15,403 bases of DNA from an uncultured archaeon (GCA_964458565.1 CAYWJO010000064.1:1-15403); one strand, 5' to 3'. Shown: positions 1 through 15,403, counted from the first letter of the stretch. Translations and numbers: made by a program. The notes: generated by a model from the sequence alone, not told the origin.

Positions 1-72
1 TCGCTTCACGGACTCGTCTAAGCGAACACCGTGTAGAAGGCTGGCGCCCTATCCGGGCTAGGCAACGGGCCC
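1..72 (-). tRNA. tRNA-Arg(UCU) with 32-nt BHB intron at 37/38; cut by the window edge (possibly the intact gene)
   Basis: Reverse complement of 72..34 = GGGCCCG TT GCCT AGCCCGGATA GGGC G CCAGC CT TCT A (acceptor 5' strand, D-arm with GG, anticodon stem, U33, anticodon TCT at 37..35, A37). Intron 33..2 = CACGGTGTTCGCTTAGACGAGTCCGTGAAGCG forms a BHB: CTTC/GAAG central helix, 3-nt bulges TA|C and CG|A, outer helix ACGG/CCGT. Confidence 0.9.
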
Positions 73-102
73 TTAGTGCTTCGCATTGCGTTTTTGGTCA
101 TG

Positions 103-126
103 TTTGACTTAAAGAGTCTTCGATAA
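103..126 (-). promoter_or_regulatory. Putative tRNA promoter (BRE + TATA TTTAAG), copy 1
   Basis: 24-mer TTTGACTTAAAGAGTCTTCGATAA is identical in all four repeats; on the minus strand it reads CGAAGACTC-TTTAAG about 35 nt upstream of tRNA G1. Confidence 0.7.
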
Positions 127-370
127 TAATCCATTTTCCCAATTTGGGTTAGCAAACTCAAATCGTTGCGTAGTAAGCAGACTAAAAGTGTGACTTGCAT
201 AGTACCTAGAGTTGCTGGAGTATATGAGCGAGAACACAAGTGTCAGAATGAAGTTGTCATCATCATCTGTGCACTATTTTCTTTCTTCTTCGTAAATTAG
301 TTGCATTATTTTCCATTTTTATCAATCAAGGTACGCATATTTTATTTTAATAATAAAAAAAAAAAAACAG

Positions 371-386
371 TTGAACTTATATTCAA
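371..386 (+). promoter_or_regulatory. Putative TATA box inside a palindrome, TTGAA-CTTATA-TTCAA
   Basis: About 38 nt upstream of ATG 420; identical at 5158-5173; followed by SD-like GGAGTG. Confidence 0.55.
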
Positions 387-419
387 AAGACATTATATTA
401 TCTTGGAGTGTAGTGAGAA

Positions 420-2717
420 ATGAGACGAACCTCTAAGAGAATTGCTGTGTCATTACTATCCGTAGTAATCCTTGTGTCTTTGAACATCACATCGGTATCT
501 GCCAGTTATGAGCAACTTACCGAGATCTCTGCCAACCCAATCAAGGTGATAGGGTCGCAACGTAACTTCACAGAGAACATCATGAATGTATACATCTGGA
601 TAGAAAATTGTCTCGATCAACCAATCATGGTCAAGGGAAACCTATCAGTACCAGATACCTTCGAGCTAGGTCTTGAGCGTGAGAATGGAATCGATTTCGA
701 TAAGGAAGGAAATATTCAGTTCTGGTCAGTGCTAAAGCCGAAGGATGTAAAATCCTCGGAAGAACCATTCAAGCTTGTAACAGATGAGATCTTCTTCATC
801 GAGCCCACTCAATTTCGCATAACTCTAGAATGGGCATATGTCAATGGGAGAGAGATTGATTGGCATAAGGTCACAGAGATCATTTATCCCGCCCGAGATA
901 CAAATTCTGATTCAGGTGATGGTGGACTACTCCGTGCTACCTTTGGTGTAGATTCGGTATCAGTCTCAGGAGAATCGACGAACAGTGACAAGGGTACTCC
1001 AATCCATTTTGTGGTGACATTCATCAACTGGGGAACTACATCTACTGGTACATTATATGTGAACATCAAGATAAGCGAGGACTCAAACTTATACCTTGGT
1101 TTCGATCAAGGTGTCTGGGCTTTCTCTGGGAATGGAAAGAACACTGGGAAATCCTTGCGTGCACCACGTTGGTATGAAGACTTTGTTCTTGGGACATATC
1201 ATCTGTATCTGGGTCCATATCTGACTGACGATGATAGAGGAATCTGGGCTCTCAATGGGATGACCCGAGTGAATGGGACATGTGTTCCGGAACCCTTGGG
1301 ATATAAAGGAACACGGGCAACCTGTTGGAGTGCAACAAAGGGAGCCGGAAATTCGGAGACTGGCACATGGAATTTCAATGTCAATGACACTGGAGATCAT
1401 GACATCTTTGTTGCAACAATAAGGGACAATTACTGGGCAGAGATGAGTTCCTATTCAGATGAAACTGAGTTCTTTGAATTTGCTGTTAATTATCCTATGG
1501 TGATTGGCTATGGGATAGACAACGATAGTGATGAAAGCAGCTTTGCAGACTGGTTTGATTTCACGTTCCATACAAAACATATCGACACATTGACATGGGA
1601 TGATGATGCCATAAACATAGATTCTTCTGATTTGAGACCAGAAGCCAAATTTCGGACTGCTGATTTGCTAGGAAACACACTGGGGATTGGTTCTGCAATG
1701 TGCTCAGCTCATCTTGACAATGGTGATGTGTCTACTCATCCAACAGGAGAAACATTCACCATGAGAGAGAATCATGGATTCGATATTGGATTTATAGGTA
1801 TCCCCAAGATTGGAGTGGGAGGTGTAAATCTTTCAAGAGGCACAGGGGCTGTATGGACAGTTGATGCAGCAATTGCTATCGCCATGGTGAATCCTGAACT
1901 ATCTCTTTATTTCAACCAGACTATAGGGAAGACCATTCATGAATTGACTCACCTCTTCAGTGGTATCCATCTGAATTCCACGGAGCTTGGCTATGCATGT
2001 ATCATGGCTGCAAATAACACACATGGTGATCACACAGGCAAGCACCAACTCAGAATGAGCACATTGACTGAAGGAAATATCTCACTCTCGTACAATCTAT
2101 TACAATTTGCAGGTGCTGCACGTCCCATGACTATTGCCAGTCAGAAATACGGGCAATGGGGTTGTCATGCGTTCTTCATGTTCACATCACCAACTTCTCC
2201 TATACAATACATGGACAACCCAGGTGGACCAAACGAATACTTTTGGGAGTATACCGGATGGTATGATTATTTCAACGTGGCAAATCAACGTAGTATGACC
2301 AATACCACTGCTGACAACAACGATGTCAATGAGTCCTACTATTATGTGGGGTATAAGCTCTATTTCAATTCAACTTTCTGGCCTACAGGATTCGATTCCA
2401 GTTCAACACAGCTGAAAGTGAACTTCAAAATGGAGGTTTCAGCGATAGCAGATAGTATTCAATATCGCTATGCATATGTGCGTCTCCTTGATGATGATAC
2501 TCAAAATCCATCCTCCCTTGGAGAGTGGTCATATGATTTTGCAAACAATGGCGACGTTGAAAAGCACACCGAGGTGAGTTCAGCATTCACTGATACTGAT
2601 ACAACTGTCTGGTTGCTGATTGGGCTTGAGGATGATACTTCGGATGACTATCACCAACAGGTGTATACATGGATAAAATGGATGGACATGCTCTATGAAT
2701 ATGGATATACACCCTAA
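420..2717 (+). CDS. Secreted zinc metalloprotease-like protein (metzincin-type)
   Basis: 765-aa ORF; signal peptide ending VSA; HELTHLFSGIH (three-His metzincin spacing, nt 1938-1970) followed by a CIM Met-turn-like motif (1998-2006). Confidence 0.7.
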   Translation: MRRTSKRIAVSLLSVVILVSLNITSVSASYEQLTEISANPIKVIGSQRNFTENIMNVYIWIENCLDQPIMVKGNLSVPDTFELGLERENGIDFDKEGNIQFWSVLKPKDVKSSEEPFKLVTDEIFFIEPTQFRITLEWAYVNGREIDWHKVTEIIYPARDTNSDSGDGGLLRATFGVDSVSVSGESTNSDKGTPIHFVVTFINWGTTSTGTLYVNIKISEDSNLYLGFDQGVWAFSGNGKNTGKSLRAPRWYEDFVLGTYHLYLGPYLTDDDRGIWALNGMTRVNGTCVPEPLGYKGTRATCWSATKGAGNSETGTWNFNVNDTGDHDIFVATIRDNYWAEMSSYSDETEFFEFAVNYPMVIGYGIDNDSDESSFADWFDFTFHTKHIDTLTWDDDAINIDSSDLRPEAKFRTADLLGNTLGIGSAMCSAHLDNGDVSTHPTGETFTMRENHGFDIGFIGIPKIGVGGVNLSRGTGAVWTVDAAIAIAMVNPELSLYFNQTIGKTIHELTHLFSGIHLNSTELGYACIMAANNTHGDHTGKHQLRMSTLTEGNISLSYNLLQFAGAARPMTIASQKYGQWGCHAFFMFTSPTSPIQYMDNPGGPNEYFWEYTGWYDYFNVANQRSMTNTTADNNDVNESYYYVGYKLYFNSTFWPTGFDSSSTQLKVNFKMEVSAIADSIQYRYAYVRLLDDDTQNPSSLGEWSYDFANNGDVEKHTEVSSAFTDTDTTVWLLIGLEDDTSDDYHQQVYTWIKWMDMLYEYGYTP

Positions 2718-2819
2718 TTCCAAGTTAAGGGTGCATCATCATCAAATCCTTTATCTCGTTTTTATCCGAGATTTTCCAGATGATATTGCCTTTCTAATGC
2801 GAACGGAGATGAAAACGCG

Positions 2820-4718
2820 TTGAGGATTAAATGTGCTATCTTAACCATCGCACTTCTACTTGGAGTACTACTCACAGTTTCAGATTGCACTGGATATCAT
2901 TTTGAGTTTCTTGAATCCGATCAATGTACTTATAGTATGATGGCTTATCAAATCCATCCCAAGTATACTAATGTTTCTGATAGCCTTTTGTACTCAACCC
3001 TCATTGGAGGAAACAGGGACGAATCTATAAGTTCAGTCTGTGTTGTACAAGGTGATGAAGTCTATATTGCAGGACCCACAGGCTCTCTTGATTTTCCCAG
3101 AAATATAGATGAATACGGATATCCGAATGGTAGCTATATGCCTTCGCAATCGGATTGTTTTATTCTAAAGATGAATCATTCAGGGCTTGTCTTCGCTGCA
3201 TTTGTTGGTGGTACTGGAAATGACTATCCATATGATATAGTCTTAGATGGAAAAGGAAACATCTATGTGACTGGTTCTACATGGTCAAGTAATTTTCCAG
3301 CAACAACATCCTTTGGTGACTGGCAAGTTGGGATTGACTGTTTTGTCTTCAAGCTGAGTCCGAATGGTGATAAACTCCTCTATTCAACGGTCATCAGGGG
3401 TAACAATGAAGAGCGTGCTATGGCCATTGATGTTGATGATGCGGGATGTGCCTACATCACAGGTTATACATTCTCACGTGACTTTCCTATGGCAGATGCT
3501 TTAGATGACTCGTACGGCGGAAATAGACTGACTGATTGCTTCATCACAAAGCTGAACCCTACTGGTGATGAGATTCTCTACTCGACATATTTTGGGGGTT
3601 ATGGAGGGGAACAGGGGAACAGTATCTTAGTTAACGAGCAGGGTTATATCTACATAGGGGGATTCACTACCTTTGATATTCCCTTGGTAAATGCGTTCGA
3701 CGACACATATGGAGGTCATCGGGATGGGTTCGTTGCAAAATTGACTCCATCAGGTGATGACGTGGTATTCAGCACCTATCTGGGAGGGTCAGGTCGAGAT
3801 TATGTACAAGACATCGATGTTGATGTAGAAGGGAATGTATATGCTACAGGATATACTGACTCGATTGATTTTCCCTTACATAATGCCTACGACTCCGAAA
3901 TTGATAATGATCAGTGTTTTGTCCTAGGGCTCAACAGTACGGGAAACGGACTTCTGTATAGCACCTATCTGGGTGGTTCAAGTGAAGACATAGGTCAGTC
4001 TATCCGGGTAGATGCGGGTGGTTATACCTATGTGGCAGGAGAGACCAGATCATCAGATTTTCCAACCTTATTGGCGTATGATAACACATCCAATGGAGGT
4101 GTGGACTCTTTTGTTTCTAGGTTTTCTCCTGAAGGTGACAAGCTCATGTACTCTACGTTTGTTGGAGGGTCTGGTAATGATTGGACCCGCGGACTTGCTA
4201 TTGACGAGTATGGAACCGCATATGTGTGTGGGTTCACAATATCTTCAGACTTCCCTCTAGTCAATCCACTTGATTCCGTTCTAAATGGAAGTGATGACGG
4301 TTTCTTGTACAAACTCGCAGACTTTAGTGACAGTGACAATGACACTCTGAGTGAATATCAGGAATCACTCTATGGCACCAATCGTTTTTCAGCTGACACT
4401 GATAATGACACTCTCGGTGATGCAGAAGAGATCTTTCTATATGGTACTTCACCATTGCTTGCTGATAGCGATAATGACACCTACGATGATGCGTGGGAGA
4501 TAAAATACGGATTCAACCCGTTGGACCCACTGGAACCAATGAGGACAATACAGTCACAGCAACTCATTCTGATGAGTGCTGCTGTCATGGTAGTATCCAT
4601 TCTTATTACTGCTGTACTCATACTTTGGCACCGCGCAAGAAGAGCGAGGATGAAAAAGGAAGAACTGGAGTCTGAGGAGAGAGAGGCAATACATGGTCTG
4701 GTAGGTGATGAGAACTAA
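2820..4718 (+). CDS. Membrane-anchored SBBP (beta-propeller) repeat protein with DxDxD Ca-binding-like repeats
   Basis: TTG start; N-terminal hydrophobic signal; about 7 repeats of YSTYLGGSGxD...I.VD..G..YV.G.T.S.DFP; DSDNDTL-type repeats; C-terminal TM followed by a basic then acidic tail. Confidence 0.85.
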   Translation: MRIKCAILTIALLLGVLLTVSDCTGYHFEFLESDQCTYSMMAYQIHPKYTNVSDSLLYSTLIGGNRDESISSVCVVQGDEVYIAGPTGSLDFPRNIDEYGYPNGSYMPSQSDCFILKMNHSGLVFAAFVGGTGNDYPYDIVLDGKGNIYVTGSTWSSNFPATTSFGDWQVGIDCFVFKLSPNGDKLLYSTVIRGNNEERAMAIDVDDAGCAYITGYTFSRDFPMADALDDSYGGNRLTDCFITKLNPTGDEILYSTYFGGYGGEQGNSILVNEQGYIYIGGFTTFDIPLVNAFDDTYGGHRDGFVAKLTPSGDDVVFSTYLGGSGRDYVQDIDVDVEGNVYATGYTDSIDFPLHNAYDSEIDNDQCFVLGLNSTGNGLLYSTYLGGSSEDIGQSIRVDAGGYTYVAGETRSSDFPTLLAYDNTSNGGVDSFVSRFSPEGDKLMYSTFVGGSGNDWTRGLAIDEYGTAYVCGFTISSDFPLVNPLDSVLNGSDDGFLYKLADFSDSDNDTLSEYQESLYGTNRFSADTDNDTLGDAEEIFLYGTSPLLADSDNDTYDDAWEIKYGFNPLDPLEPMRTIQSQQLILMSAAVMVVSILITAVLILWHRARRARMKKEELESEEREAIHGLVGDEN

Positions 4719-4776
4719 GGTATTCAGCTCACCGCTACTAATGTCCGAGGCGTGCAGACTAAAAGTGTGGCACGCA

Positions 4777-4860
4777 CGAACTCCAACTCGCTTCACGGAT
4801 TCGTCTAAACGAACTCCAACTTAGAAGGCTGGCGCCCTATCCGGGCTAGGCAACGGGCCC
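4777..4860 (-). pseudogene. tRNA-Arg(UCU) 5' fragment, chimeric (intronless junction + partial intron + duplicated 3'-exon piece)
   Basis: 5' exon 4860..4822 identical to copy 1; then AGTTGGAGTTCG (4821..4810), 21 nt of intron 3' part (4809..4789), AGTTGGAGTTCG again (4788..4777); no T-loop or acceptor 3' strand follows. Confidence 0.85.
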
Positions 4861-4889
4861 TTGATGTATCGTATAGCGTTTTGCTCTTA

Positions 4890-4913
4890 TTTGACTTAAA
4901 GAGTCTTCGATAA
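4890..4913 (-). promoter_or_regulatory. Putative tRNA promoter, copy 2
   Basis: Same invariant 24-mer as 103-126. Confidence 0.7.
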
Positions 4914-5157
4914 AACAGGCATGACTCACTATTTGGGTTAGCAAACTCAAATCGTTGTGTAGGATGCAGGCTAAAAGTGTGGCTCGTTCAGAATCCAGAG
5001 TTGTCAGGAGTATATGACCGAGAACGCGAGTGTTTGAGTAGAGTTGTCATCATCTGTGGACTATTTTCTTTCTTCTTTGTATATTATTTGCATACTTTTC
5101 CAATCTTGCCCATCAAAACACGCATGCCGTCTTTTACTTTAATAATAAAAAAAACAG

Positions 5158-5173
5158 TTGAACTTATATTCAA
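5158..5173 (+). promoter_or_regulatory. Putative TATA box inside a palindrome, TTGAA-CTTATA-TTCAA
   Basis: Identical to 371-386, at the same distance from the start codon. Confidence 0.55.
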
Positions 5174-5206
5174 GGGATATTATATTATCTTGGAGTGTAG
5201 TGAGGA

Positions 5207-7282: not shown

Positions 7283-7362
7283 TTTCACAAAGACGTAGAT
7301 TCCTCATTATTGGAGGAATATCTCACATCCACTTGTGATAAATTCTAAATACAAGTCATGAA

Positions 7363-10341
7363 ATGATTACGGGGAGCGATAGAATGGTAATCAATATGTC
7401 AAGAATGAATGAGCGATTGTGGGGATTCTCACTGTTCTTCATATTGGTTCTTCTTCCACATGGCGTATTTCCTAATGTAAATTCTAACGTTAGTCAGGCA
7501 GATGGAGCATCCCAAAATGATGAGTCATTCCAACCATCCATTACACAGGCACTCGACAATGCAGCTCGCTCATTCTTTGTAGAGAACGTGGGGCAAATAA
7601 ACTCCTCCTCAGTGTTATTTTATGGCTATATAGATACATTCTATGTCAGCCTTGGTAATGATGGAATCCAGCTGTACGAATTATCTACAGGCAGGACTCT
7701 CAAGTTAGAGTTTGTTAACTCTCAGGGTCTCGTACTTCACGCATTGGACGCTATGGATGTGAAGTACAATTTCTTTCTTGGTTCAAGGGGAGAATATATT
7801 GATGTAATGTGTTATTCTCATATTTCGTACAAGAATGTCTGGCCGCATATCAATCTCAATATTCGATTGATTGAAAATAGAGTCGAATACGAGTACATTG
7901 TTCGACCGGGAGGAAATGTATCAGACATACAAATTAAGATTATTGAACAAGCGTCTATACCATTCGAAAAGAACGAGATAGAGATAGGTTTGAAAGAACG
8001 CCAAATCGTTGAGGGTTATACTATAGGCAATCAGAAGAATCAACAGATACAGATAGATTTTGTACAGGAGGATATTGATATCTATAGTCTTCAAGTGTAT
8101 GATTATGATTGCTCTTCCACACTTATCATTGATTGTCTGATATATTCTACATATATTGGTGGTTCTGAGATTGATATTGGGAGAGATATTGCAGTCGATA
8201 AGGAGGGAAATATCTATATTACTGGTCGAACAAGTTCGACGAACTTTCCAATCCAAAATGCATATGATTCCACCTATAATGCTGGAACTGCATCTATTAC
8301 GTATGACTGTTTCATATCGAAGATTGATTCTTCGGGAGCGATAGTCTATTCTACATATGTGGGTGGTTTATTTTGGGAGGAAGGAAATGGAATCGCCGTC
8401 GATGACGAGGGAATTGCATATGTCACAGGTGGAACAAGGTCCATTGACTTTCCAACTGTGAATGGGTATGATGAGAGTTTCGGTGGTGGTTCCTATGACT
8501 GTTTCATCCTAATCCTCAATGCAACGGGAAATGGATTAGTTTATTCGACATATTTAGGTGGGGCGTTTTCAGACATGGGCCAGGATATTATAATCGATGG
8601 CGTATCTAATATTTTCATTTCTGGCAGAACTGCATCAAGTTCATTTCCTACTGTCAATGCATATGATGACACCTGGAATGATGGCTATGACTGTTTTGTA
8701 TCGAAGATGAACTCTACAGGTACGGGTCTAATATATTCAACCTATGTGGGTGGAACATTTTCATACACTCCCCCCTATGATGATCGTGATGATGTTGCAG
8801 TAGCTTTGGCAGTTGACACTTTTGGGAATGCCTATGTTTCAGGCTACACGAACTCGTTGTATTTTCCCACTGTCAATGCGTATGATGACACTCTGGGCTC
8901 GTGGAATACCGAGGATTGTTTTGTCTTCAAGCTGAATGCCACCGGCAATGGTCTCATATATTCCACCTACATTGGTGGTACGGGACAGGACCAAGCCACA
9001 GATATTACCATCGATGCTGAGGGATGCGCCTACATCACAGGCCTCACGCAGTCTACAGACTTTCCACTGGTTGGTGCACTTGATTCGACTCTCAATGGCA
9101 CATCGGACTCATTTCTCGTCAAACTCTCTCCAGAAGGAGATCAGCTCCTCTATTCCACCCTTCTGGGTGGAAATGACACCGACTCGGGGCAGTCATTGAT
9201 GTGTGATGCCCTGAACAACATCTATCTTGGCGGTACCACCACTTCGCCAGACTTTCCTGTGGTCAATGGTGTTGAGTATGATGGAAACGGGAGTGCAGAC
9301 TGTTTTGTACTCAAGCTGAACATCACCGCAAACAGCATCATGTACTCAACATGTATGGGAGGTACTATGGATGACTCCCTGTTATCCCTCGTTATCGATT
9401 CTTACGGGACAGTCTATGCCACTGGTAGTACTTATTCCGACGATTTTCCCATGGTTGACCCCTATGATGACACTCAAAACGGAGAGAGTGATGTCTTTGT
9501 GTTCCTGCTTCCAGATTTTGGAGACTCGGATTCAGATGGCATACCGGACTATAATGAGTCTCTCTATGGCACTGACAGGTTCTTAGCTGACTCAGATTTT
9601 GATGGGCTCGGAGACTTCGATGAGATTTTCACGTATCTCACCAATCCGCTCTCGAATGACAGTGACTCTGATGCTCTTGATGACTTTTCAGAGGTCATGG
9701 TCTACCTCACAAATCCATTGAATAACGATTCTGACTCGGACTTCATGAGTGATGGCTGGGAGGTCCTGTACACACTAGACCCACTAGACCCGACTGATGC
9801 TGGCCTGGATTTAGATAATGACACACTCTTGAACCTCGGTGAGTATCAGCATGGTACGCTTCCTGACAACTGGGACACTGACTCTGATTTGATGAGCGAT
9901 GGATGGGAGGTACAATATGGACTGAATCCCCTGGACCCGACTGATGCCACAGGTGATCTTGATGCAGACTTCCTCACGAACTTGCAAGAATATGAGCTTG
10001 GTACAAATCCACGCTCAAGCGATAGTGATCTTGATGGGATTCCAGACAACTGGGAGGTCTCCATGGGATTCGACCCTCTCGATCCCACTGTCCCCCTCAT
10101 AGAATATCTCCTGTACAACCTTCACATCACAATCCTTGTGAGCGTTTTTATTGTAGGTGTTTGTGTTGGGCTCATCTACCGTCTTCGACCCCGTCTGGAG
10201 CGTCGAAAGATGAGGAAGGAACAGGAAGAAGAACACAAGGAGATCGAGGAGGGTATCAGGGATCTGGGAGGGCATGATACAAGAGATACACAGAATGGCA
10301 TAGATGACAGGGAGAACGGTGGAGATACCAAAAAACCCTAG
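7363..10341 (+). CDS. Large membrane-anchored SBBP beta-propeller repeat protein with many DxDxD repeats
   Basis: 992 aa (true start may be a later Met); N-terminal FVENVGQ-type domain typical of SBBP proteins; about 7 SBBP repeats; multiple DSDxDGxxDxxE...GxxP repeats; C-terminal TM and charged tail. Confidence 0.85.
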   Translation: MITGSDRMVINMSRMNERLWGFSLFFILVLLPHGVFPNVNSNVSQADGASQNDESFQPSITQALDNAARSFFVENVGQINSSSVLFYGYIDTFYVSLGNDGIQLYELSTGRTLKLEFVNSQGLVLHALDAMDVKYNFFLGSRGEYIDVMCYSHISYKNVWPHINLNIRLIENRVEYEYIVRPGGNVSDIQIKIIEQASIPFEKNEIEIGLKERQIVEGYTIGNQKNQQIQIDFVQEDIDIYSLQVYDYDCSSTLIIDCLIYSTYIGGSEIDIGRDIAVDKEGNIYITGRTSSTNFPIQNAYDSTYNAGTASITYDCFISKIDSSGAIVYSTYVGGLFWEEGNGIAVDDEGIAYVTGGTRSIDFPTVNGYDESFGGGSYDCFILILNATGNGLVYSTYLGGAFSDMGQDIIIDGVSNIFISGRTASSSFPTVNAYDDTWNDGYDCFVSKMNSTGTGLIYSTYVGGTFSYTPPYDDRDDVAVALAVDTFGNAYVSGYTNSLYFPTVNAYDDTLGSWNTEDCFVFKLNATGNGLIYSTYIGGTGQDQATDITIDAEGCAYITGLTQSTDFPLVGALDSTLNGTSDSFLVKLSPEGDQLLYSTLLGGNDTDSGQSLMCDALNNIYLGGTTTSPDFPVVNGVEYDGNGSADCFVLKLNITANSIMYSTCMGGTMDDSLLSLVIDSYGTVYATGSTYSDDFPMVDPYDDTQNGESDVFVFLLPDFGDSDSDGIPDYNESLYGTDRFLADSDFDGLGDFDEIFTYLTNPLSNDSDSDALDDFSEVMVYLTNPLNNDSDSDFMSDGWEVLYTLDPLDPTDAGLDLDNDTLLNLGEYQHGTLPDNWDTDSDLMSDGWEVQYGLNPLDPTDATGDLDADFLTNLQEYELGTNPRSSDSDLDGIPDNWEVSMGFDPLDPTVPLIEYLLYNLHITILVSVFIVGVCVGLIYRLRPRLERRKMRKEQEEEHKEIEEGIRDLGGHDTRDTQNGIDDRENGGDTKKP

Positions 10342-10396
10342 TTATAGTGGGATAGTGAGCTGTTATGTATAGAGTAGATTAAAAGTATGGTCCACA

Positions 10397-10447
10397 CGAA
10401 CTCCAACTTAGAAGGCTGGCGCCCTATCCGGGCTAGGCAACGGGCCC
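10397..10447 (-). pseudogene. tRNA-Arg(UCU) 5' fragment, intronless
   Basis: GGGCCCGTTGCCTAGCCCGGATAGGGCGCCAGCCTTCTA|AGTTGGAGTTCG: exact exon-exon junction, anticodon stem CCAGC/GTTGG; ends at the start of the T-stem. Confidence 0.85.
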
Positions 10448-10477
10448 ATAGTGCTTCGCATTGCGTTTTTGGTCGCA

Positions 10478-10501
10478 TTTGACTTAAAGAGTCTTCGATA
10501 A
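10478..10501 (-). promoter_or_regulatory. Putative tRNA promoter, copy 3
   Basis: Same invariant 24-mer. Confidence 0.7.
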
Positions 10502-10763
10502 AACAAATCCCATCCTTAACTTGGATATGGCTTGAGGTGAAGTAAGGAGAAGCCTCAGAACTACATTATATACCCTAATACTAAATCAAGAGGGATTCGA
10601 ACTCTTAAATTGGTCATGAGTGTATTACCTTATGGAAATACAATCCAGCGACTGGATGATAAATCTCATCAGAGGTGTTGCTATTATCTAAAGAGGCAAT
10701 GGTACATTATTTAAAAACAAAGTTTATTAAATAAAATTTGAGGAAATAGAATGGGGATTTGTT

Positions 10764-11588
10764 TTGGAAATGAGAAAGTGGATTAGGTATAGACTTAACA
10801 TACTAAATCTAGAACTTGATGTGTCATGGCCATCCTTTGCAATATCTTCCCTAATCGCATTACTTCTCATCACATATTCTATACTATTATTGAATACCTT
10901 CTCAAGTATTCGTACAGGATTTGGACCTGAAGGTCCCAGTAATATACCAAGAGTTGAATTCTTTGTCAATACACTAAATAGAGATACTATCAATGCTATG
11001 GGTATATCGACTTCCATCATGAATTATCTCATTATTTCAATCATCCCTCTTGTTATGTCAATCACATTTGCCAGTTCTTTTGAAAACGGTAACTTGCGAA
11101 ATTTATTATCAATGCCCATTGCAAGGAAGTCAGTATTCTTCATAAAATTCATCATTCTGTTTTCTGTAATCACCATTCCTTCTGTATTCGGTTTATTAAT
11201 TGGTACTTTTTGGTTTTTGCCAAATTCCGCTTCTCTTAAGATTCATGTATTGCTGAGTATTTCTCTGATATTGGTTATTTTTTTCAATACATCTATTTCT
11301 ATGTTAGTCGCTGTTCAAACAAAAAGTCTGATGAAGAGTACATTTCTGAGTCTTTCGATTTGTTATATCTTATTCTTATCCTCAAGCGCGAATCTAATTC
11401 CAGGACTGATGCTTGGCGTAGTAAATCCAATTCATGCAACCAATATTTACCTGGGAATTTTGCCTACAGTACAGGAATTAACATTAGGTCTTAATTTGTT
11501 ACTTCTTTCATTGGAGGGTTGTCTTGTGATATCTCTTCTGTTGTTGACTGTTTCCGTTATCAGTTTCGATAAGATTGAGATTGAATGA
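10764..11588 (+). CDS. ABC-2 type transporter permease
   Basis: About 6 TM segments; SFENGNLRNLLSMPIARKSVFFIKF motif typical of ABC-2 permeases; likely ATG start at 10770. Confidence 0.8.
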   Translation: MEMRKWIRYRLNILNLELDVSWPSFAISSLIALLLITYSILLLNTFSSIRTGFGPEGPSNIPRVEFFVNTLNRDTINAMGISTSIMNYLIISIIPLVMSITFASSFENGNLRNLLSMPIARKSVFFIKFIILFSVITIPSVFGLLIGTFWFLPNSASLKIHVLLSISLILVIFFNTSISMLVAVQTKSLMKSTFLSLSICYILFLSSSANLIPGLMLGVVNPIHATNIYLGILPTVQELTLGLNLLLLSLEGCLVISLLLLTVSVISFDKIEIE

Positions 11589-11614
11589 GGTGAGAAATAC
11601 TGCGTGCTCTCAAT

Positions 11615-12202
11615 TTGATATTTAGTCTGGGTGTGTCCTTTCTGATTATTTCTATTCTCTATGGTAGTACAGCAATATCTGGAAAGCTGCTTTATCAGGG
11701 AGAATATAGTGGTCACTTTGTAGCTGTGACTGAAGGTGTTCATATCCATGCTTGGGGGCAGGATAATAGAAATTTTACATTATATGTTTTGGATTTTGAT
11801 AATGGGTATAAAGCACTCAATGAGAGTTCACTCGAAAATGTTTCGTATGTGTGCATCTATGAGAATGTGGCTTATATAGAAATCAATGTTTTAGTACCTT
11901 CACCAGGTTGGTATGTGATTCTCGTCACACCATCAAATCCTGATGATTCAGTTATAAGATATGATATCATCATTAGTAGAAATGTCCCTCACCTTGGTCC
12001 ATTCTTTCTAGGTTTATTTCTCGTTCTTGGTTGTATCTTATTCAAAGGAAAAAAAGCTATTTCTGAACGAAATTTGTCCTTAGGGATGCCTCATGTTTTT
12101 GGAAATCAAAAGAAGTCTAAACCTGAGCAGCCAAAGTTGAATCTTATTCTCACCATATCTTATCCGGGTAGAAAAAAGTGTATAGGTGATATCTATGTGT
12201 AA
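11615..12202 (+). CDS. Hypothetical membrane protein (2 TM flanking an extracellular domain); paralog of 13910-14431
   Basis: Hydrophobic segments at the N-terminus and near the C-terminus; NRNFTLYVLDFDNGYKALNESSLENVS resembles NRSFTLYLLDYETGIKTLSEQSLKNVS; start uncertain. Confidence 0.7.
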   Translation: MIFSLGVSFLIISILYGSTAISGKLLYQGEYSGHFVAVTEGVHIHAWGQDNRNFTLYVLDFDNGYKALNESSLENVSYVCIYENVAYIEINVLVPSPGWYVILVTPSNPDDSVIRYDIIISRNVPHLGPFFLGLFLVLGCILFKGKKAISERNLSLGMPHVFGNQKKSKPEQPKLNLILTISYPGRKKCIGDIYV

Positions 12203-13121
12203 TGAAATAATGGTGTCCACAAAAGATCTAGTGAAACGTTTCAATAATATCACAGCTTTGGATAAATTGTCTCTGGAGGTTCCTTCTGGTATATTTGGCT
12301 TAATTGGACCTAATGGGGCAGGAAAGACAACACTCTTTCGTATTCTGATTGGTCTCATCTCTCCAGATGCAGGGACAGCTTATGTATGTGGACAAAATAT
12401 TGACGCACATCTATTAGAAATCAGACAACTAATAGGTGTACTTCATGAGCGTCCAGTATATCCAAAATCTCTTTCCGCAAAGCACTATTTGCAACACGTA
12501 GCAAATCTTTATGGATCCTCAAGTTCTCCGGATGAATATCTTGCATTAGTGGGTTTATCAGAATCAGTAGATAGAAAGATAGGATCTTATTCTGCAGGAA
12601 TGATTCAACGCTTAGGACTTGCTCAGGCACTTATTGGCAAACCAAAACTTGTTCTCCTTGATGAACCAACCTCAAATTTGGATGTTATAGGAAGAGAAGC
12701 CATCTTGAATTTAGTTGTTGACCTTCATCAGAAGTATAAAACATCCTTTCTAATAGCATCGCACATCCTAAGTGATTTGGAAAAAGTATGCACATCTATT
12801 GCCTTTATAAAAAAGGGGAAGGTTATCAAACAGGGAGATATCTTAGATATTGTTTGGAATCAGATGCCAAATGAATTCATCATTGTATTGTCAGATCCAA
12901 CAACATTACAGCAACATATCAAGAATGAGGATGGTATTATTGATACACATATCGCTGGTAGTAGATCATTACTAGTTGAATTAGATGAAGGGTATGAAGT
13001 GCAAGACCTTGAAGATATTGTTTCATTGATTTCAAGTCGTGAAAATATAAAAGTCTATTCAATTGAGAAGCAAAGCTCTCTAGAAGGTACTTTTCGAAGG
13101 GTGATAGAAAATGACTACTAA
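12186..13121 (+). CDS. ABC transporter ATP-binding protein (ABC-2/multidrug-type exporter)
   Basis: Walker A GPNGAGKT, signature YSAGM, Walker B LVLLDEP, H-loop ASH; likely ATG start at 12195 after SD GGTGA. Confidence 0.95.
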   Translation: MISMCNEIMVSTKDLVKRFNNITALDKLSLEVPSGIFGLIGPNGAGKTTLFRILIGLISPDAGTAYVCGQNIDAHLLEIRQLIGVLHERPVYPKSLSAKHYLQHVANLYGSSSSPDEYLALVGLSESVDRKIGSYSAGMIQRLGLAQALIGKPKLVLLDEPTSNLDVIGREAILNLVVDLHQKYKTSFLIASHILSDLEKVCTSIAFIKKGKVIKQGDILDIVWNQMPNEFIIVLSDPTTLQQHIKNEDGIIDTHIAGSRSLLVELDEGYEVQDLEDIVSLISSRENIKVYSIEKQSSLEGTFRRVIENDY

Positions 13122-13929
13122 GCTTCAACGCATGAAATCTCTGGTTAAATTTGAATTAGACGTTTCATTCAAATTTCCTCTACTTGAAATGTTATTTATT
13201 TTCTTTATTGTGATTACTACTGTTGGAGTATACGGTCAATCTCGCACACCTGCATTGTTTATTTTTCCTGGATATGATGTTTCCGAATCTGATGTGGAAT
13301 GGGTTATACAAATCATTGAAGAGATAGATATTCTTCGAGTGTCTGCGCCATTAAATATTATAACACTAATCGTATATTGTATCACGCCGCTTTTAATGTC
13401 ATTTCAAATTGCATATAATATTGAGGTTAATCTATTTAAAAGATATATTTCCTATCCAATCGGACGAAGAACACTAATAGTTTTCAGATTCATAGTTATT
13501 TGGTTTCTCTTTTGCGCTTCAACAACTATAGGGATAATAACTCCTCTCTTTTTCATGGGTGATTTAATCAACCTCGGCGTTATTATTGTCTTGCTCTCCA
13601 CATTTTATTCTACAAGTTTCTTTGTGGTTTCAGCTTCTATTTTAATTGCTGTTGCAACTAGAAAATTTTCATATTCTGTCCTTGGTGGATTGGGTTTGTC
13701 TTCTGTTCTATTAATCGTGAGCTATTTTTCTAGCCAATCATATCTCATTCGAGGAATATGCAATCCAATTTTTCTAGCTTTGGGATTTTTCACAGGTGTA
13801 CCTTTTATTGGAGGCTTTTTTGGAGATATTTTAGTAACAGATGTATTATATAGTATTTTCTTTAATCTCGCATTGGGAATCTGCGTATTCATAATCTCTT
13901 TACTAATAGTTGAAAGGATGGATGTTTAG
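13111..13929 (+). CDS. ABC-2 type transporter permease, paralog of 10764-11588
   Basis: Multi-TM; shares ELDVS, I.PL.MS, P-I-x-R, IAV and NPI motifs with the first permease; overlaps the ATPase stop. Confidence 0.8.
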   Translation: MTTKLQRMKSLVKFELDVSFKFPLLEMLFIFFIVITTVGVYGQSRTPALFIFPGYDVSESDVEWVIQIIEEIDILRVSAPLNIITLIVYCITPLLMSFQIAYNIEVNLFKRYISYPIGRRTLIVFRFIVIWFLFCASTTIGIITPLFFMGDLINLGVIIVLLSTFYSTSFFVVSASILIAVATRKFSYSVLGGLGLSSVLLIVSYFSSQSYLIRGICNPIFLALGFFTGVPFIGGFFGDILVTDVLYSIFFNLALGICVFIISLLIVERMDV

Positions 13930-14431
13930 AATGAATCAAATGAGAACCCAGAAATTCCTCATCATATTTGGAATTACTCTGATTGCACTATCTTATTCAG
14001 CAGTTGTGATTGATTCTTCAAAATCCTTATACATTCAAATTGATGAAGTTGGAGTTTATGAGGGCTTCTTTTTTGAATGTACTAGTATAGAACACATCAA
14101 AGTAACTGAGATAATGAATAGGAGCTTTACACTTTATCTACTTGACTATGAAACTGGAATAAAAACGCTATCTGAGCAGTCACTCAAGAATGTGAGTGTT
14201 CTAGAGTATCATATTGATATAATATCATATGAAGGTGATATTAGCGGTTTAGAAAACCGTTGGCTATCAATCCTGTTAACATTAGGCAATTCAACAGAAG
14301 AGATCCTATGTTATCTAACGATCACAACGAAAGGTCCAGAAATAGGATTGTTTGTTTCTGGTCTTCTATTATCTTCTATTGGACTGGTATGGATAACATA
14401 TGATTACTTTAACAATATAAAAATATATTAG
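13910..14431 (+). CDS. Hypothetical membrane protein (2 TM); paralog of 11615-12202
   Basis: Shared FTLY.LD...G.K.L.E.SL.NVS motif; likely ATG start at 13931 or 13940. Confidence 0.7.
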   Translation: MKGWMFRMNQMRTQKFLIIFGITLIALSYSAVVIDSSKSLYIQIDEVGVYEGFFFECTSIEHIKVTEIMNRSFTLYLLDYETGIKTLSEQSLKNVSVLEYHIDIISYEGDISGLENRWLSILLTLGNSTEEILCYLTITTKGPEIGLFVSGLLLSSIGLVWITYDYFNNIKIY

Positions 14432-14502
14432 TAATACTTTTAAATAATTGATGATATAACCAATTGTACAATATCCTGAATATTGTATAATGAGGTATTA
14501 TA

Positions 14503-15144
14503 ATGTGGTTAAGGAGACTTAAACTCATTTTAGTTATTCTTCTAGCTTTTGGAATGATAATACCAAATGTGTCAGCTTACACATTTACACAAGATGACGA
14601 CTCTGACTATTCTGTTGCGAATGGAGTTTATTCAATCTGGGCATTTGCTGTACGAAGCTGCAATTATGATACGGGTTTAATTGAGGTCATGGGTGCGTGG
14701 GCGAGTGCCAGTTTGCATTATGCCAAGCTGTATATTGGAATGGCTTTCACGGCACCAATATCTGGAAGAGTTCATTGCTCTGCAAAATGGACATTGAATT
14801 ATAAAATTATGGCTGGATTGAATGAGGGTGGTTATGCCAGATTATACATTCGTTACTATCTGCTATCCATTACTCAAAATGAGCTTGAATTTAAGAAGAA
14901 CATATACAAAGATACTGTTACATATGAATCTGGAGGTTATGAAACATCATCGGGCATTATCACTGAAGATGGTAGTAGCAGTGTTTATTGGGATTATCCA
15001 TTGTCAGTAAATACAACTTACTATGCAGCAGTAATGATCTACATAAAATTGTACTATGGTGGCTATGCATTCAGTCAAACAGGTACAATAATTTCCCCTA
15101 CCTATGTTTCTCTTGATGTAAGCGAAATAAATGTCTGGTCCTGA
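14503..15144 (+). CDS. Small secreted hypothetical protein
   Basis: 213 aa; signal peptide ending NVSA; SD-like GAGGT upstream; Tyr/beta-rich mature part. Confidence 0.7.
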   Translation: MWLRRLKLILVILLAFGMIIPNVSAYTFTQDDDSDYSVANGVYSIWAFAVRSCNYDTGLIEVMGAWASASLHYAKLYIGMAFTAPISGRVHCSAKWTLNYKIMAGLNEGGYARLYIRYYLLSITQNELEFKKNIYKDTVTYESGGYETSSGIITEDGSSSVYWDYPLSVNTTYYAAVMIYIKLYYGGYAFSQTGTIISPTYVSLDVSEINVWS

Positions 15145-15165
15145 AGAATAAATATTGACAACAAA

Positions 15166-15203
15166 GAAAGGCTGAGAAAACTCAACCTTTCCTATCTTTT
15201 TTT
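15166..15203 (+). terminator. Hairpin plus T-tract, putative terminator
   Basis: GAAAGG-C-TGAG-AAAA-CTCA-A-CCTTTC followed by T7 (15197-15203), just after the last gene. Confidence 0.55.
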
Positions 15204-15245
15204 AAGTTGTTAATTATTATCTCTCTTACTATGAATGATTTCAAT

Positions 15246-15328
15246 CGAACTCCAACTCGCTTCACGGATTCACCTAAGCGAACACCGTGTAGAAGACTGG
15301 TGCCCTATCCGAGCTAGGCAACGGGCCC
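15246..15328 (-). pseudogene. tRNA-Arg(UCU) 5' fragment with 32-nt BHB intron
   Basis: 5' exon 15328..15290 (3 substitutions vs copy 1), intron 15289..15258 with intact BHB, AGTTGGAGTTCG 15257..15246, then unrelated AT-rich sequence. Confidence 0.85.
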
Positions 15329-15358
15329 TTAGTGCTTCGCATTGCGTGTTTGGTCGTG

Positions 15359-15382
15359 TTTGACTTAAAGAGTCTTCGATAA
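15359..15382 (-). promoter_or_regulatory. Putative tRNA promoter, copy 4
   Basis: Same invariant 24-mer. Confidence 0.7.
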
Positions 15383-15403
15383 AACAATCGATTGGATTTT
15401 TGG

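Follow-up and report, generated by a model that had tools for sequence, protein, structure and literature searches.

A tandem stack of gene islands without integrases, probably built up by serial insertion at the 5' part of a Thorarchaeota tRNA-Arg(UCU) gene

Known CIMEs and tycheposon satellites sit at the 3' end of a tRNA gene, use a short att site and have a helper whose cognate integrase is found in the same site or genome. Integrons, as Ghaly et al. reportedly described in 2022, also occur in archaea. Among the systems closest to the locus considered here are certain Thermococcales elements, the pTN3-like (TKV-type) ones, whose target is the 5' half of a tRNA gene (Cossu et al. 2017; Krupovic & Bamford 2008; both summarised in PMC8371274). 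Their att site is internal to the gene of a 'suicidal' tyrosine integrase; integration splits this gene into int(N) and int(C) at the two att sites, and the gene's promoter then drives the tRNA (PMC8371274). The original prediction made for this DNA, which took tRNA-targeting elements to be as a rule duplicators of the tRNA 3' end, must be qualified accordingly, as 5'-half integration with a promoter supplied by the element has already been described (PMC8371274). Arrays of elements formed by re-use of one site have likewise been noted (PMC6563490).

The window analysed here, 15,403 bp in length, is the entire contig C64 of a metagenome-assembled genome (MAG; 93% complete, 5% estimated contamination) of a Thorarchaeota (Asgard) archaeon, and both its ends lie inside repeat copies. 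It comprises three blocks of 4.8-5.6 kb, free of any recombinase and bounded by four same-strand copies of the promoter and positions 1-48 of tRNA-Arg(UCU) (starts 72, 4860, 10447 and 15328; start-to-start distances 4788, 5587 and 4881 bp), the array preceding the genome's only tRNA-Arg(UCU) gene (Table 1). These four starts had been noted beforehand, and a search for the 39-nt tRNA 5' exon confirmed them, with exact minus-strand copies at 34-72, 4822-4860 and 10409-10447, a fourth with 3 substitutions at 15290-15328 (minus strand), and no further copy in the 3.73-Mb assembly, where the reversed control pattern also gave 0 hits. To judge from the sequence, the array resembles the pTN3-like elements in that the tRNA 5' half appears to have been targeted and an uninterrupted tRNA restored, the promoter having apparently been brought by the element and the old promoter and 5' part displaced. 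Unlike them, it has no integrase, whole or split (no int(N) or int(C) at the att sites), the promoter attributed to each element duplicates that of the tRNA itself, the elements form a stack of three, and they reside in an Asgard archaeon.

Table 1. Features of the window, in order of position; coordinates count from the first base of contig C64.
Feature	Coordinates	Strand	Remarks
Copy 1 (att1), intron + start of exon 2	1-33	-	32-nt intron at tRNA position 37/38 = 2-33; first base of exon 2 = 1
Copy 1 exon 1, tRNA-Arg(UCU) positions 1-37	34-72	-	5' part of functional gene
Promoter block P1	73-126	-	30-nt spacer + invariant 24-nt TATA/BRE-like block at 103-126
Linker common to blocks 1 and 2	127-176; second copy 4914-4964	.	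~91% identity between copies
23S rRNA 3' trailer copy	177-284	+	final ~7 nt of 23S followed by ~100 nt of trailer; precedes block 1 genes
Block 1 cargo	420-4718	+	two genes; paralogue at C1:13291-16346, 78% identity
765-aa secreted protein	420-2717	+	Pfam family: none
632-aa SBBP beta-propeller protein	2820-4718	+	C-terminal membrane segment
23S rRNA tail copy	4718-4777	+	last ~45 nt + first ~15-22 nt of trailer; head-on against copy 2 tRNA fragment
Copy 2 (att2), hybrid tRNA fragment	4778-4860	-	exon 1 at 4822-4860
Copy 2 end: second GTTGGAGTTC	4778-4787	-	
Copy 2 intron remainder	4788-4809	-	last 22 nt of intron
Copy 2 intronless continuation AGTTGGAGTTCG	4810-4821	-	
Promoter block P2	4861-4913	-	TATA block same as others; spacer matches at 19-20/30
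Second 23S trailer copy	4965-5089	+	upstream of block 2 genes; 80% identical to C1:254929-255055
Block 2 cargo	5207-10341	+	two genes; paralogue at C7:370-5173, 67-71% identity
691-aa secreted transglutaminase-core protein	5207-7282	+	
992-aa DUF7948 + SBBP protein	7363-10341	+	
Decayed 23S tail/trailer remnant	10345-10397	+	adjoins copy 3; core-like AGATTAAAAGTATG at 10376-10389
Copy 3 (att3), intronless tRNA fragment	10398-10447	-	exon 1 + AGTTGGAGTTC
Promoter block P3	10448-10501	-	
Block 3 cargo	10764-15144	+	six genes: ABC-2 permease-like proteins, ABC ATPase, small membrane/secreted proteins without known family
Copy 4 (att4), probable displaced ancestral 5' part	15247-15328	-	exon 1 with 3 substitutions, 15290-15328
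Copy 4 remainder	15258-15289; 15247-15257	-	full 32-nt intron; AGTTGGAGTTC
Promoter block P4	15329-15382	-	contiguous with conserved flank on contig C32

Tandem accretion at tRNA genes, as in CIMEs and satellites, likewise yields elements in a row, direct tRNA-derived att repeats, integrase-less members and a complete tRNA at one end, but here the 5' end is used, the shared block is long and no helper with a cognate integrase was found at the site. Similarly, tRNA islands recognised by the Islander principle have a complete tRNA at one end, displaced direct-repeat fragments and an empty site in relatives, as does this locus, whereas the element-encoded integrase that accompanies their att site is absent from it. 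The predicted label "integron-like" holds as an analogy only: gene cassettes are ordered at one chromosomal spot and separated by a repeat resembling a recombination site, but the array lacks IntI, attI and attC hairpins, its repeats are direct copies of part of a host gene, and its cassettes are multi-gene units with upstream regions of their own, whereas those of integrons mostly hold one gene without a promoter and are read from a common promoter Pc.

The left end of the window joins contig C87 (C64:1-55 equals C87:3876-3930 at 100%), which holds the remaining part of the tRNA, and copy 1 is therefore the beginning of a complete gene: together with C87 it yields a full tRNA-Arg(UCU) with T arm, acceptor 3' strand and two introns, and when both introns are removed in silico ARAGORN calls tRNA-Arg(tct). 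Neither ARAGORN nor Rfam calls a tRNA in the window (0 in each case), because the copies are fragmentary, while the complete gene, interrupted by two introns, extends beyond the contig end. The T arm and acceptor end occur 1 time in the assembly, joined to copy 1, as against 4 copies of promoter and exon, and C87 and the metagenome contigs are in line with the functional tRNA expected at the left end. On the right, C64:15349-15403 equals C32:1-55. Nine relatives belonging to other genera have one tRNA here and no blocks, in the order Spt5-L11-L1-L10-P1-HDAC-(100-aa ORF)-tRNA-Arg(UCU)-rSAM-AIRS; in this genome the same flanks lie on C32 (100-aa ORF, HDAC, P1, L10, L1, L11, Spt5) and on C87, and C64 separates the two. 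L030, a closer relative, shares the promoter and has a single two-intron tRNA at an empty site, so that the comparison with related genomes, proposed as a check, found the site empty throughout. Unusual tRNA introns are abundant in the genome at large.

Copies 2-4 consist of the promoter and a 5' fragment in the same orientation, all stopping at one tRNA position (after GAGTTC), and beyond this common end the sequence of block 3 is unrelated to that of blocks 1 and 2. The repeated block begins at about -60, ends at tRNA position 48 and contains the 24-nt TATA block, which is identical in all pairs (24/24) and of which a 22-mer also precedes the single tRNA-Arg(UCU) of L030. Within the array intron-bearing, intronless and hybrid versions of the tRNA adjoin. 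In copy 2 a third of the spacer positions differ, yet neither the TATA block nor the 39-nt exon that flank it has changed, a pattern that fits a block needing to function while element 2 diverged elsewhere, and one that decay of a dead stub in place would not yield. Only one minus-strand ORF leaves any att copy, an 80-aa frame lying antisense to a cargo gene, and the inverted repeats of the window amount to a single weak, intragenic pair.

The ten large ORFs all lie on the plus strand, opposite the tRNA as had been noted, and the minus-strand ORFs of at least 80 aa are all antisense inside them. Each block holds 2-6 genes with an upstream region of its own (250-350 bp), and all genes run counter to the only repeated promoter. 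By content the cargo amounts to surface-protein and transporter genes. A signal peptide or membrane segment is predicted in every cargo protein, in agreement with the secreted or surface functions foreseen for the array. Over their first ~500 bp, a stretch reaching from the tRNA fragment as far as the signal peptide, blocks 1 and 2 are ~80% identical, and block 3 has a paralogous operon at C7:31715-36282 (67% identity).

The promoter/tRNA copies are only one part of the repeat structure; a second repeat, overlooked in the original prediction, accompanies blocks 1 and 2. It consists of the final ~45 nt of the 23S rRNA gene with its trailer, split by the tRNA module, the true 23S end having been identified on C1 by Rfam (LSU match, 71.7 bits). 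The stretch 177-284 is 85% identical to the true trailer (C1:254948-255054), and 4718-4777 is 98% identical to C1:255031-255090. The 23S-tail copies differ from one another in their inner ends, and the tRNA/23S joint sits in a short shared GTGCG. Among 60 family genomes the linker has no homologue, and the chimeric tRNA/23S junction is absent from the other family genomes (85 searched), so that these give no evidence of a spread of the element type.

No recombinase or phage hallmark family matched the ten proteins in Pfam or PHROGs, as already noted for the blocks, and NCBIfam gave no match for the two lead proteins tested. Tyrosine, serine and Y1 recombinases are lacking in the blocks and also in the flanks C87 and C32, with no PF00589 or PF16795 match in C64, C87 or C32. 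The only PF00589 match of the assembly, on C53, is a sporadic MGE-type non-Xer tyrosine integrase; no att copy lies near its gene, and no viral contig matched the promoter block or the 23S-type repeat. Helper plasmids and viruses are usually not binned into MAGs, and in this one, at 93% completeness, no helper recombinase tied to the locus was found. Mobilisation in trans, as the original prediction had it, stays hypothetical.

The locus is best read as three gene islands without integrases, stacked in tandem, that were probably inserted serially, as circles, into the 5' part of tRNA-Arg(UCU), each by a single crossover. An island in circular form would carry ~110-140 bp comprising a native-type tRNA promoter and positions 1-48, with or without the intron at 37/38, and one Campbell-type crossover within this block would bring the whole circle to lie upstream of the tRNA's 3' part. 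Thereafter the complete gene would be driven by the promoter and 5' part of the island itself, the earlier ones persisting upstream as a dead stub. Each block would have brought along the promoter and first two-thirds of the gene, so that the tRNA stayed intact. The islands likely entered in the order block 3, block 2, block 1, which would make copy 4 the original stub and copy 1 the working gene; the gradient of age, with 3 exon substitutions in copy 4, a decayed 23S remnant at copy 3 and 98% identity at copy 2, fits serial insertion at the working copy. The proposal that blocks carry a replacement promoter and 5' part is thus largely supported by the stub ends, the empty sites and the pattern of copy 2, but the ongoing capture that it implied is not borne out: contigs of five samples contain no circles, empty sites or altered cassette orders, and current mobility is therefore unproven.

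Could the repeats, or their order, be an artefact of assembly or binning? With both contig ends in repeat copies and a contamination estimate of 5% the question is legitimate, but such an artefact is hardly conceivable, as independent assemblies (JGI and Logan, from several salt-marsh samples) bridge every junction. Seven contigs do so at 99.8-100% identity: L031, L072 and L076 (three JGI contigs from three samples) span the att1 joint between C64 and C87, L067 bridges att2, L069 and L070 bridge att3, and L065 leads from att4 into C32, while L066 covers the whole of block 3; moreover, the copies have no exact stretch of at least 55 nt in common. No more credible is the notion that the fragments are functional split-tRNA 5' halves of the Nanoarchaeum/Caldivirga type, each with its own transcript and joined in trans to a 3' half. 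The intact promoter block of every fragment and the wealth of unusual introns would suit it, but the assembly contains no separate 3'-half gene, the sole 3' part being that on C87, contiguous with copy 1; relatives have an ordinary single gene; and the sequences that follow the three stubs differ, so that they cannot all pair with one common leader. Tandem duplication in place of a promoter, 5'-tRNA and gene unit by unequal crossing-over, followed by divergence and gene replacement in a locus that was never mobile, is very improbable. It would account for the resemblance of blocks 1 and 2 in their first ~500 bp and two-gene layouts, and every block does have paralogues elsewhere in the genome; against this, block 3 has only the promoter/exon block in common with the other two, the spacer has diverged in copy 2 rather than in copies 3 and 4, although these ought to be at least its equal in age, three tRNA versions stand side by side, and the 23S pieces of blocks 1 and 2 are foreign to the ancestral locus of the nine relatives.

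We consider two candidates for the catalyst of serial insertion. We favour host homologous recombination on the shared block, to which we give somewhat less than an even chance, over a site-specific recombinase supplied in trans; several stable-RNA anchors, the variable inner ends of the 23S tails and a tRNA/23S joint in a short GTGCG all argue in its direction. A dedicated enzyme, encoded on a helper element or, like the C53 integrase, on the chromosome, would treat the blocks as satellite- or CIME-like passengers and cut in or beside AGTTGGAGTTC (anticodon-stem 3' strand and variable loop); we hold it a real but lesser possibility. The sharp inner boundary common to all three stubs, including that of the unrelated block 3, is expected of such an enzyme and less so of homologous recombination when two unrelated element types have it. 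The intron, kept in copy 4 and absent from copy 3, points the same way: were element 3 intronless, the crossover must be placed within the 11 nt that follow the intron and not in the ~100-nt promoter/exon stretch, as a site-specific cut would have it, an argument that fails if element 3 had the intron. A cut at the intron look-alike site GGTGTTCG would leave a hybrid such as copy 2, archaeal integrases count tRNA-Arg(TCT) among their preferred targets and those of pTN3-like type act on tRNA 5' halves (PMC8371274), and the sporadic C53 recombinase is at least present. Weighing against the enzyme are the lack of an integrase, whole or split, in or beside the array, of an att copy near the C53 gene and of a viral contig with either repeat; the length of the shared block, which far exceeds the 17-69 bp that PMC6563490 gives for archaeal att sites; and the great sequence differences among the rRNA-tail arrays, for which several enzymes would be needed.

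Whichever catalyst acted, the modules observed here are bounded by spare ends of stable-RNA genes with their flanking signal (promoter/tRNA 5' copies, 23S tail/trailer copies) and have no integrase. One possibility, which we put forward tentatively, is that Thorarchaeota have a general system of gene capture that needs no element-borne integrase, in which circular cassettes insert at the ends of stable-RNA genes, always regenerate the gene and can switch anchor. Cassettes would carry either the 3' tail and trailer or the promoter and 5' part of an essential stable-RNA gene, and the reaction might be catalysed by host recombination coupled to DNA uptake or by a still unrecognised recombinase. 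As intron-bearing, intronless and hybrid versions adjoin, insertions of this kind would also turn tRNA introns over. Blocks 1 and 2, being related elements with a 23S tail/trailer split by the tRNA module, are on our main reading derived from the 23S-tail cassettes behind the genome's 23S gene; under the wider hypothesis one such cassette would have gained a tRNA-Arg promoter and 5' module in a switch of anchor; two anchor types, tRNA 5' and 23S tail, are in any case fused in one cassette. Spare 23S tails are multiple in this genome and in many relatives, and the array beside the 23S gene on C1 resembles the present locus in its types of cargo, namely ABC-2 operons and an SBBP protein.

The metagenome-assembled genome (MAG) to which the window belongs comprises 3.73-Mb at 41% GC in 93 contigs, and its 15,403-bp contig C64 is the window in full. 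The 39-nt 5' exon of tRNA-Arg(UCU), made up of the acceptor, D arm and anticodon stem and ending 3' in the loop letters CTTCTA with the anticodon TCT, occurs here four times (att1-att4, copies 1-4) at intervals of 4788, 5587 and 4881 bp, and nowhere else in the assembly. Each copy is preceded by a 24-nt TATA/BRE-like block, identical in all four, followed by a 29-30-nt spacer, and in copies 2-4 the match to the tRNA stops after GAGTTC (about position 48), with unrelated sequence beyond. All ten large ORFs lie on the plus strand; their products invariably carry a signal peptide or membrane segment, and none matches a recombinase or phage hallmark family in family profile searches. The exon positions and family searches confirm the original prediction of four tRNA-Arg 5' copies on the same strand bounding three blocks devoid of recombinases. 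This structural part stands, while the mobility in trans and the 'capture platform' that were proposed with it stay conjectural.

Neither ARAGORN nor Rfam calls a tRNA in the window, because the gene has two introns and is cut by the contig end (a SNORD72 match at 15105-15182, E = 0.97, is due to chance). Nucleotides 1-55 of C64 are identical to the end of contig C87, and beyond this overlap C87 holds exon 2, a T arm with a 30-nt intron inside it, the acceptor 3' strand, the discriminator and CCA, so that the T arm and acceptor 3' strand that copy 1 was expected to have are both present. The two-intron gene occupies C87:3790-3930 together with window 1-72 and recurs in L031, one of three JGI metagenome contigs (L031, L072 and L076, from three samples) that run across C87, copy 1 and block 1 with 99.8-99.97% identity. 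Because C87 completes copy 1, these contigs span the joint, and ARAGORN calls tRNA-Arg(tct) once the 32-nt 37/38 intron and the T-loop intron are removed in silico, copy 1 is, as far as the sequence tells, the working tRNA gene and the sole gene for that anticodon in the assembly. ARAGORN misses the two-intron gene even with intron search on; since tRNA calling yields only ~32 genes although the genome is 93% complete, many of its multi-intron tRNAs are probably uncalled.

The flanks of the array can be followed into relatives. C87 encodes AIRS-like and radical-SAM proteins, and contig C32, which shares 55 nt with the right end of C64, encodes a 100-aa ORF, HDAC, P1, L10, L1, L11 and Spt5. Comparison of related genomes, as the original prediction had proposed, uncovered the empty site: in nine relatives, all from other genera of the family, a single tRNA-Arg(UCU) lies between the same flanking genes, about 80-150 bp from the 100-aa ORF, and the metagenome contig L030, from a closer relative, shares the promoter 22-mer and likewise has just one tRNA, with two introns, between HDAC and radical-SAM. 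These loci point to the addition in our MAG of ~15.3 kb between copy 4, the putative ancestral promoter and 5' part adjoining C32, and the tRNA 3' part. In L030, the closest relative found, a further 1.4 kb lies immediately 5' of the tRNA promoter block (L030:1287-2669), with minus-strand ORFs of 243 and 124 aa and no second tRNA fragment. The downstream side of the tRNA is also variable, since 6-10 kb separates the tRNA 3' end from the radical-SAM gene in two relatives, G016 (L023:10292-16075, including a 1927-aa ORF) and G001 (L024:3944-9993); no duplicated tRNA 3' ends were found 3' of the tRNA gene in these two genomes or in our MAG. In the MAG the tRNA and the radical-SAM gene are separated by a 271-aa gene that most relatives lack there (C87:2945-3760, minus strand, L013). 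As a recombinase candidate its product was rejected, since it belongs to a Thorarchaeota family that reaches 12 copies per genome and bears N-terminal LRR repeats in its longer members.

An assembly artefact is rejected, since independent assemblies bridge every junction (see table); the longest exact stretch common to any two repeat copies is 52 nt. The same array appears in contigs from five samples, with no circles or empty sites in these contigs, where rare events are invisible. Contigs from four other runs held no circle or empty-site joints either, and as contigs drop rare variants this evidence is neutral. Two joints considered as array variants, 4840>53 and 10427>4841, proved to be tRNA-Arg genes with D-loop introns that belong to other organisms. 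Each end of C64 (window 1-55 and 15349-15403) matches its neighbour, C87 or C32, exactly over 55 nt, yet the repeat copies have no 55-mer in common; this suggests, if the assembly graph was built at k=55, a third, unbinned path at both array ends; this path could represent structural variants in the population.

Features of the array, with window coordinates, block contents and the metagenome contigs that bridge its junctions
Feature	Position	Strand	Observation
tRNA 5' exon, 39-nt	34-72, 4822-4860, 10409-10447	minus	three copies identical
tRNA 5' exon, fourth copy	15290-15328	minus	three substitutions
Last ~45 nt of 23S + first ~15-22 nt of trailer	4718-4777	plus	98% identity to the real one
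23S trailer copy	177-284	plus	85% identity
23S trailer copy	4965-5089	plus	80% identity
Decayed 23S tail/trailer remnant	10345-10397	plus	
Block 1 cargo			765-aa protein, no Pfam family; SBBP beta-propeller protein
Block 2 cargo			transglutaminase-core protein; DUF7948 + SBBP protein
Block 3 cargo			ABC-2 permease + ABC ATPase operon; small unknown proteins
att1 junction			bridged by L031, L072, L076
att2 junction			bridged by L067 (equals C64:3942-9789)
att3 junction			bridged by L069, L070
att4 to C32 junction			bridged by L065
Block 3, entire			covered by L066

A repeat with the core CACACTTTTAGTCT (minus strand) flanks the tRNA modules in blocks 1 and 2 and also occurs five times on contig C1, where Rfam assigns the copy at the contig end, with 71.7 bits, to the final 113 nt of 23S rRNA, cut short by the contig boundary. 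Some 24 nt, TGCAGACTAAAAGTGTGGCNCGCA, stand on either side of each module of tRNA fragment, promoter and 50-nt linker, and the tRNA/23S joint sits in a short GTGCG common to the 23S trailer and some tRNA-Arg T stems. T-stem alleles of the GTGCG/GTGTG kind exist in genera g6 and g4; a foreign allele of this sort as the source of these letters after GAGTTC in copies 2 and 3 is possible and was set aside, the letters also matching the 23S trailer. Blocks 1 and 2 share ~80% identity over the stretch from the tRNA fragment through the signal peptide of the first gene and are thus two diverged members of one element family, in which a 23S-type site is fused to the tRNA-Arg module. Their common upstream region and signal peptide (window 260-505 and 5047-5292, ~80% identity) lead into different mature proteins, of no Pfam family in block 1 and with a transglutaminase core in block 2. 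The fused junction was present only in our MAG among 85 family genomes searched, the linker had no homologues in 60 family genomes, and neither the promoter 19-mer nor a 30-mer of the 23S-type repeat matched the scanned viral contigs.

Elsewhere in the MAG, the 23S rRNA gene is cut off by the end of C1 (L016, C1:237000-255159; 3' end near C1:255049). Behind it follow spare copies of the 23S tail and trailer, at roughly 250.3, 249.5 and 245.9 kb, and partial ones at 242.7 and 241.0 kb; between these copies lie ABC-2 operons, small ORFs and the gene for a 924-aa SBBP protein. The stretch is a 23S-anchored cassette array, and its ABC-2 operons and SBBP protein recall the blocks of the window. A complete tail and trailer copy 240 kb away from the 23S gene (L015, C1:13232-16346) adjoins a 78%-identical paralogue of block 1, comprising a 645-aa SBBP gene and a shortened first gene, and looks like a cassette at an ectopic site. 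Relatives, too, have many spare 23S tails: two genomes each have 13 matches to the 23S tail, the real 23S end being counted in.

The most likely origin of the array is serial insertion by single crossovers. A circle carrying flank a, promoter, tRNA 1-48 and flank b would recombine with the chromosomal tRNA gene, such that the incoming promoter and 5' part would come to precede the resident 3' part, while those already in place would be pushed upstream as a stub. Three rounds would yield the order X - att4 - block 3 - att3 - block 2 - att2 - block 1 - att1 - tRNA 3' part. The copies form a gradient of age: there are three changes in the exon of copy 4, and of the 23S remnants the one at copy 3 is decayed, the one at copy 2 nearly intact. 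In copy 2, furthermore, only 19-20 of 30 spacer positions match the other copies, while the flanking 24-nt TATA block and 39-nt exon are unchanged; at the spacer's rate, simple arithmetic (0.67^63) puts the chance of 63 unchanged flanking positions at roughly 1e-11. A diverged spacer between an unchanged TATA block and exon points to selection that would have kept the promoter and 5' part working while element 2, the mobile form proposed for block 2, diverged elsewhere, and this footprint in turn points to a probable arrival of element 2 from another lineage.

The introns differ among the copies: copies 1 and 4 contain one, copy 3 does not, and copy 2 is a hybrid with an intronless junction, the last 22 nt of the intron and then exon 2 again. 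A crossover between an intronless and an intron-bearing copy at the common GTTCG would give exactly this hybrid. Such neighbouring intron-bearing, intronless and hybrid copies would be footprints of tRNA intron gain and loss via such insertions, an idea that PMC8371274 attributes to Sugahara et al. 2012. Intron position in tRNA-Arg(UCU) varies among genera within one family, those of g6 and g4 (L046-L053) having a ~31-nt D-loop intron, with or without the 37/38 intron.

What catalysed the crossovers is a matter of two readings. Host homologous recombination on the 110-140-bp block, which needs no dedicated enzyme, is a serious if still tentative candidate, because it explains anchors in very different stable RNAs, the variable inner boundaries of the 23S tails and the fusion of anchors at microhomology. 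A site-specific enzyme supplied in trans, which in its fixed-cut-site version would place all crossovers within AGTTGGAGTTC, is a possible, somewhat less likely alternative: the identical inner boundary in unrelated blocks and a crossover that may have fallen in the 11 nt following the intron speak for it, but neither the blocks nor the flanks C87 and C32 contain recombinase genes, and the assembly has no match to the serine recombinase, Y1 transposase or SSV-type integrase families. Its only tyrosine recombinase (C53:16821-17918, minus strand, L019), present in 4 of 25 relatives, scores far under the XerA cut-off and adjoins a 692-aa SBBP-like protein, with no att copy nearby; canonical XerA was not detected in the MAG. 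The intron of copy 4, considered as proof of a site-specific crossover, fails as such if element 3, the proposed mobile form of block 3, carried the intron. Capture driven by homology, if true, would let genes flow and cell surfaces diversify by a simple and general route in the archaea most closely related to eukaryotes; were a hitherto unrecognised recombinase responsible, the 11-nt boundary would be a concrete candidate for its site.

Elements that integrate into the 5'-distal part of tRNA genes are rare but have been described, and arrays arising by repeated use of one site are known (PMC6563490). The pTN3-like integrases of Thermococcales use a tRNA 5' half as attB, the restored tRNA being expressed from the element's integrase promoter, and tRNA-Arg(TCT) is among the most used archaeal integration targets (PMC8371274). 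The locus works like these 5'-half integrators and re-used-site arrays, but without an integrase, and it shows none of the features that define an integron. The best fit is with the cassette arrays at stable-RNA ends of Thorarchaeota, the 23S part of which was checked in the MAG and by copy counts in relatives. Three features are new: an integrase-free anchor on the promoter side in an Asgard archaeon, 5-kb loads of surface and transport genes, and an anchor that fuses tRNA with 23S sequence. Here an essential tRNA gene serves as a landing pad on its promoter side, at which three 5-kb islands are stacked that encode secreted, surface and export proteins, with no visible integrase. The fusion of tRNA module and 23S tail in two islands is the first physical link between tRNA- and rRNA-anchored cassette arrays in the group and points to one mechanism common to both. 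At another tRNA gene of the MAG, two copies of the last 30 nt of tRNA-Ser(UGA) lie near one end of contig C45 (positions 69 and 985, minus strand, 916 bp apart), a duplication that may be a classical 3'-side insertion scar.
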